From a phage: a DNA stretch of 64,000 bases. Of the stretch, positions 4,301-36,691 are shown in pieces. Position 1 is the stretch's first letter; every line of letters starts with the position of its first letter. The stretch is from NCBI GenBank assembly GCA_027262695.1, contig GCA_027262695.1_4722.1; one strand, given 5' to 3'. The notes beneath the pieces were generated by a model that had not been told where the DNA came from, made no database searches, and was given only the letters and a program-made list of their open reading frames with translations. The translations under genes were made by a program, and so were the position numbers.

Positions 4301-5143
4301 ATGGGTGCTATTGACTACAGTGTCGATCGTATCTGCCGTACAATACCGGCAGATATTCTACAGTATTGCTATATCGATCGTTACGATTGGCGTAACCGCT
4401 ATCCGCGTTCCGTTGAAGATATCATTACCGATTGGGTAATCCGTAAACGGGTTATCGGGGACATCGACATCTACGGGGGACTACAAACCGTTATCCCTCT
4501 TGATGATGCAGGCGTTACGATTGAAGAAGTCACCATTAACTGTTATGTTTTCCATATTCCGCTGGAAGCGACACAGGGACGTTACATCACGTCAGCCTTG
4601 TCGATTATCTCCGGAAGCGTGAATAACTACGGAATCAACTATAACGGTCAATGGGGGGCGTTCAACCAAACCCAGTTCCAACGTCAACTTTGCGGATGGA
4701 ACCCCGCAAGCAACGCATTGCAACAAGGAATGAATGCATTCGGTCCTGTGAACATCCTCAGTACCGCTAACGTTGACATCATCGCACCTAACACCATCAT
4801 GGTGAACAACGTCACACCGGTTCAATTCCCGTTGAGCTTACGCTGTTTCCTTGCCCATGATCCAGAACTAACCAACCTCAGCATGGAAGTCTGGAACGAC
4901 TTTTACAAGCTCTGTTTATACGCCACACAAAGTGACATCTATAACAGAACCGTTATTCGTCTCGATCGTGGTGTTACCGCACAAGGTCAAGAAGTCGGTG
5001 CATTCAAGGAATACATCGATCGCTTCGCTGATGCGGAAAACACCTACCAGGAATTCCTGAACGAGACGTGGGCAGGCGTTGCTGCATGGAACGACCCACA
5101 AACGAAACGTCGGGCAATACGTCTGCAAACCGGTTACTTCTAA
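4301..5143 (+). CDS. hypothetical protein
   Basis: ORF track, 280 aa; AGGGG RBS; transcribed divergently from the phuZ candidate. Confidence 0.6.
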   Translation: MGAIDYSVDRICRTIPADILQYCYIDRYDWRNRYPRSVEDIITDWVIRKRVIGDIDIYGGLQTVIPLDDAGVTIEEVTINCYVFHIPLEATQGRYITSALSIISGSVNNYGINYNGQWGAFNQTQFQRQLCGWNPASNALQQGMNAFGPVNILSTANVDIIAPNTIMVNNVTPVQFPLSLRCFLAHDPELTNLSMEVWNDFYKLCLYATQSDIYNRTVIRLDRGVTAQGQEVGAFKEYIDRFADAENTYQEFLNETWAGVAAWNDPQTKRRAIRLQTGYF

Positions 5144-5146
5144 AGA

Positions 5147-5668
5147 CTATGCCGCCTTTTCCAACAATGTTGGTTGAGGCGGTTGTTGTTTGAAAACCAC
5201 CATCATATCAGCAAACATCGCAGCCACAGTCCCTACGGACGTCGCTAACTGAATGCTCAATTCGACATCAGGTGGAAGACAATCAAAATGAACACCGTAT
5301 TGCGTATGTGTCTGTTCAACAACGATACGGGGAACGATCTTGCTCTTAACCGCATCGGTCATGAACAAACGTAAGAACGTTTCACCGTCTTCGCTATCCG
5401 TAAAGCGATACGCGTTACCAGAAAACTCGACGCTTGGCGTAACGATAAACTGCACGCGATCGTCAGTCGGATGGATATTTAGCCACCGTGCAACATCGTC
5501 CGTGTTAACGTTACGCATACTCAGCACGGTATACGCAAACAACGTATCATGGTGTTTAGAATAATGCAGTACATAAGCCGCATCTTTCTTTTTGTGAACC
5601 CCTTCATTGTATTCTATTGTCGTGTAGCCTGATTTATATAGCTTTACTTGCGGTTTCTCGCTCATCAT
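5147..5668 (-). CDS. hypothetical protein
   Basis: ORF 5147..5749 trimmed to the ATG that overlaps the upstream stop (ATGATGA). Confidence 0.5.
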   Translation of the reverse strand: MMSEKPQVKLYKSGYTTIEYNEGVHKKKDAAYVLHYSKHHDTLFAYTVLSMRNVNTDDVARWLNIHPTDDRVQFIVTPSVEFSGNAYRFTDSEDGETFLRLFMTDAVKSKIVPRIVVEQTHTQYGVHFDCLPPDVELSIQLATSVGTVAAMFADMMVVFKQQPPQPTLLEKAA

Positions 5669-5964
5669 AACAACCCTTCCCGTTTCATCGCAGAACGCAT
5701 ACTTGCGTAAAGCGCATTCTTCATTGCACCTGGACGTAACGGATAACAAATCTCATATCGACGTCCTTGTTTTACAGCGATCTTTCTTCCATTCAAAAAC
5801 AACGTTCCATTATCCAGCAAGAGCTCACCTTGCAATACCATGAGCCCTGCCTTAACATGCCGTCCTTCTTCTTTGGTTAACACTTTGTAGCCGTGTTTAT
5901 CCAATAACCACAACTCGTAAATACCGTGCGCAGCCTTTGGCGTTACTTTCTTTTTCGTCGTCAT
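5665..5964 (-). CDS. hypothetical protein
   Basis: ORF track, 99 aa; strong AAGGAGG RBS. Confidence 0.6.
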   Translation of the reverse strand: MTTKKKVTPKAAHGIYELWLLDKHGYKVLTKEEGRHVKAGLMVLQGELLLDNGTLFLNGRKIAVKQGRRYEICYPLRPGAMKNALYASMRSAMKREGLL

Positions 5965-5976
5965 GATCGATCCTCC

Positions 5977-6357
5977 TTAAACTCCTTGTCGGATCATCAC
6001 CAACCGGAGCATATTGTATTCCAACGTGGCGCTTTCTAATTCGAATTCATATCGATACCAGAAATTCGGCTCCAATTGGTTTACAATACAACAACGCACC
6101 TTCGTTTGCACCTTCCTTGACAGCTCACGTAAGAAACGGGTTACCTCCGGTTTGAAGTAATACGCCAAACCTAACTGATCGGAATAAAACAGGCCGCTAT
6201 CATTCGCAGCCTGCAGGATAACATATTCGACCATCAGATGACGTACATTCGGTTCAGGTACCGACGAACATAACGCAAGATCCAACACATCAACGATCGG
6301 ACCAACGTACACGGCAGCACGGTATTCACGAATAACATCAACGTTATCCATGGCCAC
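5977..6357 (-). CDS. hypothetical protein
   Basis: ORF track, 126 aa; AGGTGG RBS. Confidence 0.55.
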   Translation of the reverse strand: MAMDNVDVIREYRAAVYVGPIVDVLDLALCSSVPEPNVRHLMVEYVILQAANDSGLFYSDQLGLAYYFKPEVTRFLRELSRKVQTKVRCCIVNQLEPNFWYRYEFELESATLEYNMLRLVMIRQGV

Positions 6358-30651: not shown

Positions 30652-31148
30652 GCGGTTGTGCTGTATACCTATAAATACGAGACGCTTTGGCGAAATCCAG
30701 CAAAATACAATTACTGTGCGTCTAGATTGTTCAGATAAGGTCGTTAATCTTATCCCGGTGGTGATGATAGGTGCATCACCAACCCGCTTGCGCTCTCACG
30801 CAAGAGCAGACTATATCACATCTCGTTTCAAACGGTGCTTCTTCAGCGCCTCAACGAGAGTTCACTTCTTCCCAGCGCATCCAGCGCCATTCTCTTATCC
30901 AAGGAGAATGCCTCACTCGAGGGGTACAGGGGGATGAATCCCTTAGTCGTTGAACCGTCACCCTAGAACGTTTCACAACGATCCTTAGGCGATTGGCTGC
31001 GGATTGTCCTTAAGCTATTATCTGTTTTATAACCATACCGTCTTTCTTTTCAGAATCCGTTTTGGTCGATAACAGCGATGGATGTCTTCGCAATTCAGTG
31101 AATCTCATCTACATGTCGCCATATAGACGGACCCTGCTATTAAAAGCG
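30652..31148 (-). ncRNA. group I self-splicing intron (boundaries approximate) in the RNAP beta gene
   Basis: Minus strand carries an R-like element GGTTCAACGACTAAGGGATT (30956..30937) and an S-like element TGATATAGTCT (30818..30808) that can form P7 (GACTA/TAGTC), followed by a P9-like hairpin (30806..30786); no ORF >60 aa in the correct orientation. Confidence 0.55.
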
Positions 31149-34100
31149 TTAATCATCTCTGTCGGCAGCAGGTACTGCAAGTGCCGATGTACTCATTATT
31201 GACGAGCTACCATCCGTTTTCTCGTCGTAAGGTTTTGTTTCACCGTATACAGACACGATGTTTGCGTTAGGTGCAAGATAAGCAGAGATACCTACATCGC
31301 CACTGTCCTTCGTACCTTCAGATACCACACCGATGTCTGACTTGTCGTATTCACGATCGCGTGCGCGTCGAAGCGATGTTTTCGAACGACCCCCGATACC
31401 GGTCATCGTTGCTTCTTCACCCTGCTTGATATCCAACATCGGGTTGGTTTCATCGATGACAATAGAAGCACTGTCGTCAAGGATTTGGTTCCAAACGCTC
31501 ACCGGACTGATTGAGATCTTCTGTCGGTTGCCTTGGCTGCTGTTCTCGTTTTGACGAATAGCACCAACCAGATCCTTATACACCAACTCAGCGAACTTAT
31601 CGTACGTTTTGAAGCGCTGGTAGTTCACATCGTTCGTGTTCGGTGCCCAATCATCCAGAAGCAGTTCAACAGCACGTAATAACAACATGGCGAAATCAGT
31701 CGGTTCACCCATGTTCTGCAATAATGTACGACTTACCGGGTCGACGAAAAGACGCTCCATGAGTTCAAGTTCGCGAAGATGACGAACCTTAAGACCTGCA
31801 CCATCGACAACGTTAAAATAGATATCCCGATTGTCAAAAGCGCCGCGAGCGTAACCGATGTAATTACGGTATTCGTTAAATCCACCCAACAACAATGTCG
31901 TCATTCGATCATCTTTACTGAAGATCAAACTTTCATCGTCGAAGCTTACCGCGAATTCATCCGATGCTAAGCCCATACGAGAACCACGAACTACCGTACG
32001 GTAGTTCGCTTTAAGATGTTCTAATAACGGAGTAAGTCCGCCTAGGTAACTTAGCACAACGCCAACCGGGATACGTACGCCCATGAACTCAAGGTCAGCG
32101 GCTTCGATAGGCATCTTCGCGGCATTGATACCGAAGAAATCAGGGAACGTTCCAACCGGCGTTGGGGTTTGATTCGGTTCGTAAACGTACAACTGATTCT
32201 GATTATCCACCGCCAGGAATTCACCGTTGGTGTTTTTGGCGAACGTTAAGAATCCACCCGCCAGCTGTTCGGTGAACAAATCTGCGCCGATATGTTCTGG
32301 CAACGTTTTGATATCGAGGCGTATGTCCCAATCCGCAAATTGAATTTGGGTGTAGTTACGCGCAAGCACAGCGAAGTAATACGGAACTTTGACAGCCGGA
32401 TCAAAGACGTTACCACGTTTTAAGGTGGTTAGCGGGGAGGTTTTATCGTAATACATCGCTGTGAGTTGACGTGTTAACCAACGACCAGCATTATTCACGA
32501 CACGCTCTGAACGTTTAACAAACACCTTACCGTAGGCGGTACTCAACGCAACTTCGGATGATGATACCTTTCTGATAGGTTTATCAACACGTTGTTTACG
32601 CATCCGGTATTTAATACCGTTAACGACATAAATACCGTCCTTACGAACCTTCGGTAACATCACCGGGAACGTCGTTGGAACACCACCCACCGGAGCCAGC
32701 TTGATCGTGATGACCTGGTAATCACCCATCACGTCAACAACATCTTCAACTTTATATCCGGTAACAGGATAGCCTGCTTGTTGCACTGCCACAACGGCCG
32801 CTGCGATGTCCTTTTGCATCACGTGTTCAACGTAATGTTTATCCCACACCGCAAGCGTCGATTTACATAGGCTCTTATCGACGATAACATCCGCTTCCGG
32901 CATAACCTTTGCTGGCGCTAATTTCGCGGCTTTTGGTTTAACCTCAACGTATTCAGCAAGCGTTAGTCCAGAACCGTCAGGTGCTTCAATTTCATGAATC
33001 GCGTCAGCGTTACGCATCGCGGCTTTATATTGAACGCCGCTTAATTGACCCGCATCCGCGAGGTCGCTCGCACGTACCAACACCGCATCGGATAACGACT
33101 GAATATATTCACCGTGCGTTTTCGGCAACGTTGCCGCATCGAAGACATCATCTTTTTCTTCCGGCACGTCGTCGTTGACGACCTCAAAGAGATCATCGGT
33201 GATGTCTTGATCTTCGTCCGGTTGAAAATCGGGCTGAACTTCAACGCCCGGGACTTCACGAACATCTTCGAACGCACGCTCAACAACCGCGTTCCATGCT
33301 TCAGCGTCGTCATCCTCATCCGATCCTCCGATCAACTCGCTTTCCAGTTCATCGGGGTCAAGAACGGTATCGAGATCCTCACCGTTAGGAAGCACGACAT
33401 CACGTTCATCGTACTCCGCATCGGGACTGTCTGCGAGAATATCACGCTCCTGACGAAGAACCTGCTCCTCTTCTTGTTTCTGTTCTTCTTCGTTGGCGCT
33501 CTGCGACCACAGACGGGTTACCGCCATCATCCAACGACGCTGGAATGTTTCAAGCGTTGTCTTATCAAGTTCCTCGCCTTCCTTCGCCAAACCCGAACGC
33601 CATTCTTCCATTAAACCAAGATTCAGGGTAAAGAAATAGACGCCGTCCGTAAATACAACGTTAAGCTTATCCAGCGAAGCACGATCCAATGACGCCATCG
33701 TACTGTTCTCACGATCGACACCTAACCAGCGGAAGAAGTCAAAGAACGACAGCTCCTCTGAGGTGGCAAAATTCATGAGGTTATTACGGGTTGGGGCTTG
33801 TTGTGTCGTACGCATCAACGATATCTTCGGTAACGTCGACGGGATACGGAATAACAAGAACTGCTGACGGTCGCTTTGCTTGGCGATCTCGTTTGCTTGC
33901 GTCCAAATCGTTTTACGCACGTTGAACCACTCATCATACCAACGTGTTAGCGTCGGACGATAGATGTACATGTGGTTAAGATGCGCATAGTTAGCCACGA
34001 TCTGGGCGTTGATGTTCTTCTCAACCTTGCTAAGATCGGTGACCAAACGAAAACGACGATGCGATGCACGGTAATCCAGTTTCGCACGCGGTAGCTGAAA

Positions 34101-34358
34101 TCGCTGATCGCGTCGAGGCGCGCCTTGCTTGGTTGCGAGGTCATCCGCGAACGATATCCAAAGCTGTGCACTTTCTTTGCTCAGCATGTATTCGTTTTCA
34201 GGAGGACCTATTAACGAAGGATCGGTTGCTGTGTAATGATAAACAGCATAACGCGGCAGCTGCAAAAGCTGCACCAAACGCAATCTAGGTGATAATAACT
34301 CTTGATAACGTCGTACACCGAATTGTCTGTAGTAATCAAGGTATTTAAGTTTTGCCAT
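31149..34358 (-). CDS. RNA polymerase beta-like subunit, N-terminal and middle part (5' exon), with a long N-terminal extension
   Basis: 1069 aa; C-terminal region NPMLDIKQGEEATMTGIGGRSK...VSVYGETKPY aligns to the rpoB fork segment [26 protein letters not shown]...LSVYAQTNEY; own ATG with a GGAG RBS; acidic low-complexity insert. Confidence 0.65.
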   Translation of the reverse strand: MAKLKYLDYYRQFGVRRYQELLSPRLRLVQLLQLPRYAVYHYTATDPSLIGPPENEYMLSKESAQLWISFADDLATKQGAPRRDQRFQLPRAKLDYRASHRRFRLVTDLSKVEKNINAQIVANYAHLNHMYIYRPTLTRWYDEWFNVRKTIWTQANEIAKQSDRQQFLLFRIPSTLPKISLMRTTQQAPTRNNLMNFATSEELSFFDFFRWLGVDRENSTMASLDRASLDKLNVVFTDGVYFFTLNLGLMEEWRSGLAKEGEELDKTTLETFQRRWMMAVTRLWSQSANEEEQKQEEEQVLRQERDILADSPDAEYDERDVVLPNGEDLDTVLDPDELESELIGGSDEDDDAEAWNAVVERAFEDVREVPGVEVQPDFQPDEDQDITDDLFEVVNDDVPEEKDDVFDAATLPKTHGEYIQSLSDAVLVRASDLADAGQLSGVQYKAAMRNADAIHEIEAPDGSGLTLAEYVEVKPKAAKLAPAKVMPEADVIVDKSLCKSTLAVWDKHYVEHVMQKDIAAAVVAVQQAGYPVTGYKVEDVVDVMGDYQVITIKLAPVGGVPTTFPVMLPKVRKDGIYVVNGIKYRMRKQRVDKPIRKVSSSEVALSTAYGKVFVKRSERVVNNAGRWLTRQLTAMYYDKTSPLTTLKRGNVFDPAVKVPYYFAVLARNYTQIQFADWDIRLDIKTLPEHIGADLFTEQLAGGFLTFAKNTNGEFLAVDNQNQLYVYEPNQTPTPVGTFPDFFGINAAKMPIEAADLEFMGVRIPVGVVLSYLGGLTPLLEHLKANYRTVVRGSRMGLASDEFAVSFDDESLIFSKDDRMTTLLLGGFNEYRNYIGYARGAFDNRDIYFNVVDGAGLKVRHLRELELMERLFVDPVSRTLLQNMGEPTDFAMLLLRAVELLLDDWAPNTNDVNYQRFKTYDKFAELVYKDLVGAIRQNENSSQGNRQKISISPVSVWNQILDDSASIVIDETNPMLDIKQGEEATMTGIGGRSKTSLRRARDREYDKSDIGVVSEGTKDSGDVGISAYLAPNANIVSVYGETKPYDEKTDGSSSIMSTSALAVPAADRDD

Positions 34359-34361
34359 GGG

Positions 34362-34548
34362 TTAGGCTCCACGAGGTCCCGTTAAGTTGCGTAATAGGAA
34401 CGCAACCGTATCGTAACCAATATCAATGTTGAATTTATTTTTACCGCTTACCCAGAAAGCACGCTTCTTGTGCGAGTTGGTAATTTCGTCGATGGCTTCC
34501 ATGGAATAAAGAACGTTAACCGAGACCGTATCACCGTCGAACCTTGTC
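34362..34548 (-). CDS. RNA polymerase beta-prime N-terminal subunit, 3' exon carrying the FDGD catalytic motif
   Basis: Minus-strand frame open from 34562: RTEAKTRFDGDTVSVNVLYSMEAIDEITNSHKKRAFWVSGKNKFNIDIGYDTVAFLLRNLTGPRGA-stop; resembles rpoC [20 protein letters not shown]...SQDVVLGLYY; stop TAA lies 3 nt before the beta-gene ATG. Confidence 0.5.
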
Positions 34549-35198
34549 TTCGCCTCAGTTCGCTACGCTGAGACCGCCTGCATGGATACGTACATGACAG
34601 GCTGCTTGCACTTTCATGCAAGAGGAGACTATATCAAACCGGCAGCTTCACCTTCTCGATCGTATCGAGAATGCGGTGCTGAAGTATTCTTCAGCAGCAC
34701 CTGCTACGGTAACCTACACTTCGAAGACGCTTGTCCTCTACAGGGTGGTAAATCCCTTAGTCGTTGAACCTGCGTTGTTTCCCATTCTTGGTTGCAAGAA
34801 TGCCGTATTACTACGCAACAACCAGGCTGCTGATTGCCCATTGTCTCGCACCTTAGCACCGCTTACGCGGCTTTTCTTTCAGCCTAAGCCTCTTACGGAG
34901 GTAGTGCATCTCAACTGTTGTTTCTGCCTTTCGGCACCCCATGGGTCGTTGAGCTTTAGGGGTTCCCAGCAATTCGTAGGTTTTTCAAGCACTCCCTTTC
35001 GGGAATACCGGACAACTTCCCTTGAAAAAAGTCTTTATTTTTCAAGGACTTATCCCCGCCGAGTCCCTGGAGGTACGGGCTCGGAATGCAAACCGTTTCT
35101 ACGAACGATGCTTTTTGTTTCCAATCAGGGTATTCCCATGCGATATATCGTTCGTCAGTAATCGGTTCCCAATTACTATCAAGTTCTGTCTTGGGAGA
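34549..35198 (-). ncRNA. group I self-splicing intron (boundaries approximate) in the RNAP beta-prime gene
   Basis: Minus strand carries R-like GGTTCAACGACTAAGGGATT (34770..34751), S-like TGATATAGTCT (34636..34626) and a P9-like hairpin (34622..34605) that shows a compensatory pair change relative to the other intron. Confidence 0.55.
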
Positions 35199-36518
35199 AG
35201 CGTTAACGGTTGTACGCGCATAACAGGTTAACGGAATGACTGACTGCATGCCCGATACCGGATAACGTGTTACCATCGCAGCCAGGTTGTTCCAGTATTT
35301 ATATCCTGCGATATAGATAAGCTCAGTATAAGTAATGGGGTGAACATCCGCACCAGGTTTGTTAAGCATCTCTGGCGGTATTTCACTCATACCGCGGAAA
35401 AGTCGGAATGAATCGTTGTTTACATAAACCAAACAGAGATAACGACCATTCACCATGATAGGTTCGTTACGTACGCCTGGATCGCTTAGCGTGTTCAATA
35501 AACGTTCGATACCATCCCAAGTAGTAAAGTCATCGATGGTGTCAGGATCAAGTACGACTCGTTCACGTTCCATCGTTTCGGTATCGATAAGCTCAACCTC
35601 GGTAACATCACGGACGAAGATCTCTTGCAAAATACCAGTACGTAATGCGTGTTGCGTTATCGGAAGGGCTGCTTTGCTCATCTGGTATAGACCAAGCTGT
35701 ACAGATGTACATGACGTTTGGTTTGGAGAACCGAGAACCTCCGTTGTGGGGTTAATTGCCGAAATAACGTTACGGGTTGAGTTCCAAACACGACGTGAAC
35801 CGAACTTACCTTGGAAGATCCCTTTCTTACCCTGGAACATATCCAACAGCAATGCGTAGATATCATTGAAGGTTCTTTGCAGGCTCCAGCGCTGTCCGTC
35901 GTAGACAGGATCGTTGTAGTCCTTTAATCCATCGGGAACGGTATTGGAGATAGCAAGGAAACGACGGTAGAGCTCCGTGATTTCTTGTTCGCTTTCATAC
36001 CCGCCTTCCTTTACTTCTATTTCACGAAGACCAGCAGGTAACACCAATAAATGACGGGTCATCGCTTTGAACATGTTTTCTTCGACAACTTTAATACGCA
36101 GTTCTCGTTGCGCTGAACCTGTTGAAACGAACTTGATCTCCGCAACGTGTTGTGCGAAGAAACCGTAGCCGGTTTGTCCCGTTAATGCGTCAGCAGCAAC
36201 GAAATCACGCTGTTCTGGATCCCATCGTGCATAAGCTTTACCGGACATGATATCGCCATAAAGGTGTTTCAATCGAATAAGGCGATCGTAAATGACCGGA
36301 TGCAAGATTTCCACTTTACACTCGATGACCGCAAAGCGGCGATCACGATCTTCACTACCCGCACTCCCAAAGATGGTGTATGAATAAAAACCATCATCAT
36401 GGAAATTACCCGTACTCGGGTCACGGATACTCATGCTGGTAATCTTAGGAAGGAAACGCAACTGCTGCTTATCAAGATGCAGTATACTGATATTGAACGG
36501 CTCTCTGACTTTAGCCAT
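35199..36518 (-). CDS. RNA polymerase beta-prime N-terminal subunit, 5' exon (ORF reads through into the intron to 34956)
   Basis: ORF 34956..36551; start trimmed to Met 12 (AAGGAG RBS); LPAGLREI...GGYESEQEITELYRRF resembles rpoC [44 protein letters not shown] resembles GKRVDYSGRSVI; homology ends near ...ARTTVNA (about 35199). Confidence 0.6.
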
Positions 36519-36691
36519 GGATGCACTCCTTAAATAAGGCGGCGGTATCATCTGAACACATGAGAGACGTAATGGGTGAAGCCATCACCCATCGCTTCCC
36601 TGCTTGATGCGAGGAAGGTATTAAATTACGTACCTGTCCGATGGCCTCGAACAGGCGATGTATGAAGCTATGCTTCAATTTGGAGGTATAC

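Follow-up and report, generated by a model that had tools for sequence, protein, structure and literature searches.

The window analysed here is a stretch of 64,000 nucleotides (nt) of phage DNA (NCBI GenBank assembly GCA_027262695.1, contig GCA_027262695.1_4722.1), and the region of interest within it, positions 34,362 to 36,518, lies on the minus strand and holds the gene of a phage RNA polymerase (RNAP) subunit that is interrupted by a group I intron. A first-pass annotation, made from the nucleotide sequence, had proposed that an RNAP beta-prime gene is split here by such an intron just upstream of the catalytic FDGD motif. The 531-amino-acid open reading frame (ORF) on which this proposal was built, 36551..34956 (-), is present on the minus strand. 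The covariance-model search recommended with the proposal gave a match of Rfam RF00028 (Intron_gpI) at 35037..34605 (-), which spans the full model (1-253) with 58.4 bits (E 3.1e-12) and thus exceeds the gathering score of 50 bits. Hence, the presence of a group I intron at the Mg-binding motif of a gene for a beta-prime-type catalytic subunit is confirmed; the intron lies, however, within this motif and not upstream of it, namely between the codon of the first Mg-binding, catalytic Asp and the remaining FDGD (GGD/FDGD, equivalent to bacterial NAD/FDGD; here and below, a slash within a motif marks an insertion or splice site). In bacterial beta-prime, NADFDGD contains the three Mg-binding aspartates. 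With a probability of roughly 0.9, we read 35051..34542 (-) as a group I intron without an endonuclease gene, placed inside the Mg-binding motif of the gene for the N-terminal beta-prime subunit of a virion RNAP. The interrupted gene is composed as follows:

36518..35052, minus strand: exon 1, 489 codons from MAKVREPF... to ...YLQGLGGD; last codon GAU (U at position -1)
35051..34542, minus strand: intron, 510 nt, follows U and ends in G; splice sites 35052/35051 and 34542/34541
34958..34956, minus strand: stop of the exon-1 frame in unspliced RNA, 31 codons into the intron, P5 region
34542, minus strand: terminal G (omega G) of the intron; G is the last intron base in 6/6 introns at this site
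34541..34362, minus strand: exon 2, 59 codons (FDGDTVSV...RNLTGPRGA) plus TAA

Splice junction and reading frame

The start of exon 1 was taken from the annotation of gp205 of Escherichia phage vB_EcoM_Goslar (Goslar in the following), and its end was set by an intronless relative together with five intronless homologs. The relative, L017, was found in a scan of viral contigs (IMGVR_UViG_3300011560_000001); it is Goslar-like, intronless and shows 96% amino-acid identity. Since L017 reads GLGGDFDGDTVSV without a break across the junction (fuller stretch PAPYLAGLGGDFDGDTVSVNVLYS), and runs through to the identical stop, the position of the junction is fixed. In tblastn searches, coverage of at least 80% in one place was reached by 209 of 234 chimallivirus-type records for a trial spliced C-terminus and by 220 of 244 phage records for another junction-spanning query. 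Five tblastn records were aligned, all of which read straight through the junction with the consensus ...L-G-G-D-F-D-G-D-T..., so that exon 1 extends through YLQGLGGD (35052) and exon 2 opens at the F codon (34541). Homology, reported in the first-pass annotation to be lost near ...ARTTVNA (about 35199), hereby continues for 147 nt more, the supposed 80 unrelated codons before the stop reduce to 31 intron codons, and the exons are separated by the 510 nt of the intron instead of about 640 nt. A downstream frame with TRFDGD had also been described; the FDGD-containing frame exists, but its "TR" is intronic.

Joining of the exons yields a protein of 548 amino acids, which has the same length as the intronless L017 product, and only this spliced product contains the GGDFDGD motif. 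Unspliced RNA would yield a 520-amino-acid protein lacking the active site; the two forms are distinguished by their junction peptides, ASFVETVCIPSPYLQGLGGDFDGDTVSVNVLYSMEAIDEITNSHK for the spliced and ASFVETVCIPSPYLQGLGGDK for the read-through form (...GLGGDKSLK...). An expression of the FDGD frame from its own start, considered at the outset as the competing possibility, finds no basis, as this frame contains a TAG at 34565..34563 and no in-frame ATG, GTG or TTG between this TAG and FDGD. Judged from its sequence, the exon that bears FDGD is not translatable independently. The exon 2 protein is identical in the window, in Goslar, in L017 and in L018, a further Goslar-like locus (IMGVR_UViG_3300045988_173921), with 1-6 nucleotide differences per pair, 4-6 for the pairs that include the window, all of them at third codon positions, a pattern of strict purifying selection on exon 2.

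Other junctions were tried and rejected. The 3' end of the Rfam match (34605) is not a splice site, because the FDGD frame contains the TAG at 34565..34563. The helix P1 given by Rfam (GACUUU/UUUCAAGGGAAGUU, splice after 35028) would insert eight residues, KSLKNKDF, after GGD, which are absent from all homologs. The junction ...YLQGL/FDGD, with a P1 formed in Goslar by CCGGACUU and AAGGUCCGG, was dropped as the five intronless homologs have LGGD, LGAD or LTAD before FDGD, and the junction ...L-KTR-FDGD would fit in length, but puts Arg in the place of the invariant first catalytic Asp and is contradicted by L017.

At the junction itself, the codons are GAC/TTT GAT in L017, GAT/TTC GAC in the window and Goslar, and GAT/TTC GAT in L018. 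L017 (5459..5479) thereby differs from the window (35060..34530) by up to three synonymous changes in 7 nt, exon 2 being otherwise nearly identical. These changes could represent a target resistant to the endonuclease, or could simply reflect that no U is required at position -1.

Identity of the gene product

The only close relative of the window phage in the phage collection is Goslar, with 87.5% DNA identity over 90% of a 6.2-kb query; by sequence, the window phage is thus a Goslar-like nucleus-forming jumbo phage, Goslar being a nucleus-forming chimallivirus (PMC12908238). As the first-pass annotation had advised, the spliced translation was compared with the phiKZ-like family, and it matches phrog_2986 ("RNA polymerase beta subunit") from end to end, residues 3-543 of 548 corresponding to profile positions 3-538/539 (E 8.7e-181). 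No Pfam match was obtained for the exon-1 ORF, the joined C-terminal 76 amino acids or the beta-like ORFs, and the family identity was therefore taken from PHROGs and the PDB. In a PDB sequence search, ETVCIPSPYLQGLGGDFDGDTVSVNVLYSMEAIDE was aligned with a beta-prime chain. The junction sequence was placed opposite chloroplast beta-prime and opposite LSGDYDGD of the non-virion RNAP of AR9, in its N-terminal beta-prime subunit. GGDFDGD was aligned to NADFDGD of PDB chain 8qma_T and to GDYDGD of AR9 7s01_d.

The annotation of the PhiPA3 ortholog, gp212, gives a similarity to phiKZ gp180. Downstream, a gene that begins at 34358, i.e. 4 nt past exon 2, matches phrog_3148, the phiKZ gp178-like beta subunit, and the gene order corresponds to gp180-gp179-gp178 of phiKZ. 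Based on the likeness to PhiPA3 and phiKZ gp180 and on the beta-like phrog_3148 neighbour, the interrupted gene is assigned from its sequence to the N-terminal beta-prime subunit of the virion RNAP (phiKZ gp180 family) and is not a complete rpoC. phiKZ gp180 carries DFDGD and is known to be packaged into the virion and active in early transcription (PMC10612078); by orthology and gene order, the same would be expected of the window subunit.

Architecture of the ribozyme

The secondary structure was derived from the Rfam alignment, which covers the P3-P9 core, and from an RNAalifold run on the introns of the window, L018 and Goslar. The helices of both agree, P3, P4, P6, P8 and P9 being aligned by Rfam and independently recovered by RNAalifold. 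The elements are, from 5' to 3':

35048..35019, minus strand: 5' hairpin (read as P1 extension), UCCUUGAAAAA with UUUUUCAAGGG, 11 base pairs (bp), 8-nt loop; RNAfold -11.9 kcal/mol
35013..35010, minus strand: proposed internal guide sequence GUCC, to pair with exon GGAU (35055..35052) as P1, U.G at the splice site
35009..34988, minus strand: P2 hairpin, GAAA loop; RNAalifold, one C-G to U-G change preserves the pair
34982..34975, minus strand: P3 5' strand (AACCUACG), pairs with 34718..34711; Rfam and RNAalifold
34971..34828, minus strand: P4-P5 domain, large multi-hairpin P5 extension with several GNRA loops; in Rfam a 95-nt insertion in L5
34827..34768, minus strand: P6 with inner hairpins P6a (GUAA loop) and P6b; RNAalifold, loops vary and stems are kept in the three phages
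34770..34754, minus strand: R element GGTTCAACGACTAAGGG, J6/7 and P7 5' strand (GACUA 34762..34758); aligned to RF00028 consensus GGUUCAaAGACUA
34757..34723, minus strand: P7.1 and P7.2 hairpins between the P7 5' and P3 3' strands, 37-nt insertion relative to RF00028; RNAalifold
34718..34711, minus strand: P3 3' strand (UGUAGGUU); Rfam and RNAalifold
34710..34640, minus strand: P8 domain, branched; Rfam and RNAalifold
34636..34626, minus strand: S element TGATATAGTCT, P7 3' strand (UAGUC 34631..34627); aligned to RF00028 consensus GAUAUAGUC
34622..34605, minus strand: P9 hairpin CUUGCAU GAAA GUGCAAG, where the Rfam match ends; RNAalifold
34602..34552, minus strand: P9.1 and P9.2 hairpins; RNAalifold, outside the Rfam match

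The R and S elements and the P9-like hairpin seen in the first pass are hereby recovered by Rfam and RNAalifold, and GACUA and UAGUC are complementary and able to form P7. Each element occurs in two exact copies in the window (0.00 and 0.02 expected by chance), one per intron, as a second intron is present downstream (see below). The hairpins P9.1 and P9.2 must be intronic owing to the TAG at 34565..34563 in the exon-2 frame. Hairpins of the P7.1/P7.2 type between P7 and P3 are a feature of subgroup IA introns, which suggests that the window intron belongs to this subgroup. Most of the 139 predicted pairs are unchanged in the three phages, and several variable positions fall into hairpin loops.

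GUCC is found just 5' of P2, 2-6 bases past the 5' helix, in 6/6 introns at this site and likewise in the second intron of the window, and would act as the internal guide that pairs with exon (G)GAU. At the splice sites, all six intron-bearing alleles read GAU/...G/UU(C or U)GA(C or U). A U at position -1 is present in 6/6 intron-bearing versus 1/6 intronless alleles, 5/6 of the latter ending in GAC, with the alleles being phylogenetically non-independent; this pattern fits the requirement of group I introns.

The absence of a homing-endonuclease ORF, already remarked upon in the first pass, was confirmed, as the longest sense ORF touching the intron has 57 amino acids. An antisense ATG ORF of 181 amino acids, 34616..35161 (+), runs across the intron and the end of exon 1; considered as a hidden endonuclease gene, it has no Pfam match and is most likely spurious.

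Introns at the same site in other phages

For phiKZ, the prediction of an intron at the D/FDGD site dates from 2002 (according to PMC10914365, PMC11512511), with gp179 as the intron-encoded endonuclease inside the gp180 operon (PMC12676376, PMC11512511). With the contiguous PA7 sequence as tblastn query, phiKZ, U1B and PhiPizzaParty are 100% identical only up to residue 76, the D of LGAD, and the match resumes elsewhere in the record. In phiKZ, gp180 is followed by gp179 (HNH_3), an RF00028 match of 92 bits, the FDGD exon and gp178. Vibrio phage Yong MS31 and Goslar share this layout, each with an HNH_3 ORF. When the flanks of the endonuclease insert were cofolded for Goslar, phiKZ and Yong MS31, helices of unrelated sequence formed at the equivalent position; as this long-range helix joins both flanks, the endonuclease gene sits in the loop of the 5' helix. 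As judged from these sequences, the intron family at the D/FDGD site of several chimalliviruses normally carries an HNH endonuclease gene in this loop. L018 shows the 510-nt arrangement identical to that of the window, and neither holds an endonuclease gene. In the window, the 5' helix loop has only 8 nt, for which reason the window intron is, on its sequence, unable to mobilise itself.

Compared to phiKZ gp180/gp179, the window intron has the identical insertion site (...LGGD/FDGD versus ...LGAD/FDGD in phiKZ), the RF00028 core, the GUCC guide, the helix directly after the 5' splice site and the gp178-like beta gene as its neighbour. The phiKZ intron differs in its length of 1443 nt, in the 357-amino-acid HNH_3 endonuclease in the helix loop and in its peripheral domains, which lack the long P5 extension, so that MAFFT aligns little beyond segments of the P3-P7 core. 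The Goslar intron is much closer, with 455 of 472 ribozyme-core bases, the site, exon 2 and both splice-site bases in common; it measures 2044 nt and differs by a 490-amino-acid HNH_3/NUMOD1 endonuclease (gp206) enclosed by a helix of wholly different sequence. Its GenBank record annotates an Intron_gpI feature (Goslar_00229) but leaves the two exons unjoined. Xanthomonas phage RTH11 also has an intron without an endonuclease ORF at the D/FDGD site (405 nt), with a short 5' hairpin followed by GUCC, but its peripheral sequence is only distantly related and an unrelated 433-amino-acid ORF follows exon 2. The intron of PhiPA3 gp210 (gp211/gp209), also of group I, likewise interrupts a virion-RNAP gene of a chimallivirus immediately behind conserved catalytic aspartates (PMC11620839), but it sits in the beta and not in the beta-prime gene and has an active nicking HNH endonuclease, which neither window copy possesses. 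The window intron thus adds to a family already predicted in phiKZ and flagged in Goslar and is not a new kind of element.

Short blastn matches to the intron core (52-70 nt, 79-85% identity) were obtained in Proteus phage 7 (MT679221), Salmonella phage SaP7 (OM456492), Staphylococcus phage S6 (LC680885) and Vibrio phage vB_pir03 (MT811961), the last of which adjoins an annotated RNA polymerase beta-prime gene. Related introns may therefore be widespread in jumbo phages. By means of the shared 19-nt R element, we also located a region (4770..5824 (-) of IMGVR_UViG_3300022332_000002) with three RF00028 matches (76-98 bits) within 1.1 kb, which appear to split a terminase-large-subunit-like gene (Walker A GGAAGSGKT, ORF 5812..6330).

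A second intron and the occupancy of both sites

A second RF00028 match in the window, at 31153..30787 (-) with 51 bits, marks an intron in the downstream beta gene:

31151..30691, minus strand: intron 2, 461 nt; splits the phiKZ gp178-like beta gene after ...AVPAADRDD (GAU/); no endonuclease ORF

Goslar has no counterpart of window 31151..30689. The best junction, 31152/30690, gives DRDD/PKRLVFIG versus DRDDGKRLVFVG in Goslar; the 3' splice site of intron 2 is a best guess and less certain than that of intron 1. Intron 2 occupies the site of the PhiPA3 gp210 intron, directly after ...AADRDD, and has the R element, the S element and the GUCC guide in common with intron 1. The loci L013 and L018 both lie on IMGVR_UViG_3300045988_173921 and the loci L014 and L017 on IMGVR_UViG_3300011560_000001; intron 2 of L014 has a 403-amino-acid HNH/NUMOD1 ORF near its 5' end. 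Hereby, site 1 (beta-prime, D/FDGD) and site 2 (beta, DD/) are occupied as follows:

Window: site 1, intron without endonuclease gene; site 2, intron without endonuclease gene
IMGVR_UViG_3300045988_173921: site 1, intron without endonuclease gene; site 2, intron without endonuclease gene
Goslar: site 1, intron with endonuclease gene; site 2, empty
IMGVR_UViG_3300011560_000001: site 1, empty; site 2, intron with endonuclease gene

The divergence around site 1 is uneven. Between window and Goslar, the intron core differs in 17 of 472 bases and exon 1 in 244 of 1467, with 20 amino-acid differences in exon 1, half of which fall into its last ~50 codons. In a sliding-window comparison with the three Goslar-like relatives, identity is about 80-88% across the gene, drops to 65-76% over the 170 nt that immediately precede the insertion site (35213..35047), reaches 91-100% from 35046 to about 34327, a stretch that comprises the intron, exon 2 and the very beginning of the next gene, and settles again at about 85-89% beyond it. 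Even the intronless relative has an almost identical exon 2. This mosaic resembles recombination or co-conversion tracts around a homing site, and strong constraint on the ribozyme could account for part of it. A search for a donor of the divergent 170 nt yielded nothing beyond Goslar and, in other jumbo phages, short matches to the core.

Probable splicing and persistence of the intron

We infer from the sequence that the window intron is spliced. The pre-mRNA, presumably transcribed inside the phage nucleus, would have to fold into the ribozyme, whereupon free guanosine would attack after U35052, held by a short P1 with the guide GUCC. The freed exon 1 would then attack after the terminal G 34542, and the ligated mRNA would encode the 548-amino-acid subunit, its DFDGD centre intact; unspliced RNA would give no more than the 520-amino-acid protein that lacks the active site.

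Several observations weigh against this reading. Full-length transcriptomics of phiKZ with Oxford Nanopore Technologies (ONT) sequencing detected, under the conditions used, no spliced reads at the gp179 locus (PMC10914365). In the window and in L018, the frame of exon 1 runs on for 31 codons into the core of the intron, versus a stop after 0-13 codons in phiKZ, Yong MS31, RTH11 and Goslar; with translation coupled to transcription, ribosomes entering the core would disturb its folding unless splicing takes place away from ribosomes. The candidate P1 has 4 bp in the window, 6 bp in Yong MS31 and 3 bp in Goslar and RTH11, and since it shows no covariation, the guide pairing is kept as a proposal; P10 has only 2-3 bp. 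Among the three close relatives, RNAalifold finds zero double compensatory changes, and 5 of the 139 pairs are broken in one sequence. The MAFFT alignment of the six intron cores is unreliable beyond P7.

Why the intron persists is a question separate from its identity. It is possible, if rather unlikely, that it is kept as protection: an occupied site lacks the target of HNH endonucleases from co-infecting Goslar-like phages, and the endonuclease-less copies at both catalytic-Asp sites would then represent immunity against "weaponised" endonucleases and not decaying selfish DNA. The intronless, endonuclease-less and endonuclease-bearing states all found among close relatives at both sites accord with this idea, as do the well conserved intron core of the window and the PhiPA3 gp210 endonuclease, which harms an intronless competitor at the counterpart of the site of window intron 2 (PMC11620839). 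A neutral cycle of gain, decay and loss of homing introns, however, predicts the identical pattern, and in the case of phiKZ and PhiPA3 the phage nucleus excludes foreign endonucleases (PMC11620839). Slightly more doubtful is the wider proposal that both endonuclease-less introns, each following the GAU of a catalytic Asp in adjacent virion-RNAP genes, are kept for immunity and are tolerated, despite the 31 open codons, because splicing in a nucleus-forming phage is separated from ribosomes.

The short P1 and P10 and the lack of splicing in the phiKZ ONT data could also mean that the ribozyme is not self-sufficient and needs a phage or host protein cofactor in vivo, for instance an RNA chaperone or maturase-like factor provided in trans, which could bind to the large extensions at the periphery (P5 extension, P9.1, P9.2). 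We regard this as improbable, given that the core exceeds the gathering threshold of RF00028, a model derived from self-splicing introns, and that peripheral hairpins with GNRA loops are typical of self-stabilising phage introns. That the intron is a dead relic, with the gene a pseudogene or its two parts made as separate polypeptides, would agree with the missing endonuclease gene and with gene callers giving a 520-amino-acid product with exon 2 unannotated, but is very hard to reconcile with an exon 2 that lacks an in-frame start codon yet is under strict purifying selection, with the loss of the catalytic DFDGD centre from an essential virion enzyme, with the identical 510-nt arrangement retained in two independent phages and with the conserved ribozyme core. 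We retain the reading of an endonuclease-less group I intron that is presumably removed by splicing, its core being predicted to be catalytically competent.

Conclusion

Gene callers end the N-terminal beta-prime subunit at the 520-amino-acid read-through and miss the exon with the catalytic FDGD. The exact read-through product is also encoded by NCBI GCA_027262755.1 (ABJYRE010000004.1, 248,053 nt), where the gene caller gives no annotation for the intron or for exon 2 (locus 4564..5160), and by three further contigs, of which two exceed 200 kb and one measures 20-50 kb. With the correct splice sites, the real 548-amino-acid subunit is obtained.

The known workings of group I introns and of these polymerases are unchanged by the finding, whose main points are the exact placement inside DFDGD, the endonuclease-less form and the clade-level polymorphism at two active-site codons. 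Intron-mediated competition has been shown for PhiPA3 and phiKZ (PMC11620839). The four Goslar-like genomes represent every stage of occupancy, i.e. empty, with and without endonuclease gene, at two RNAP active-site codons, which makes this one clade a convenient system for testing such competition between nucleus-forming phages, and it could likewise serve to ask whether splicing occurs inside the phage nucleus.

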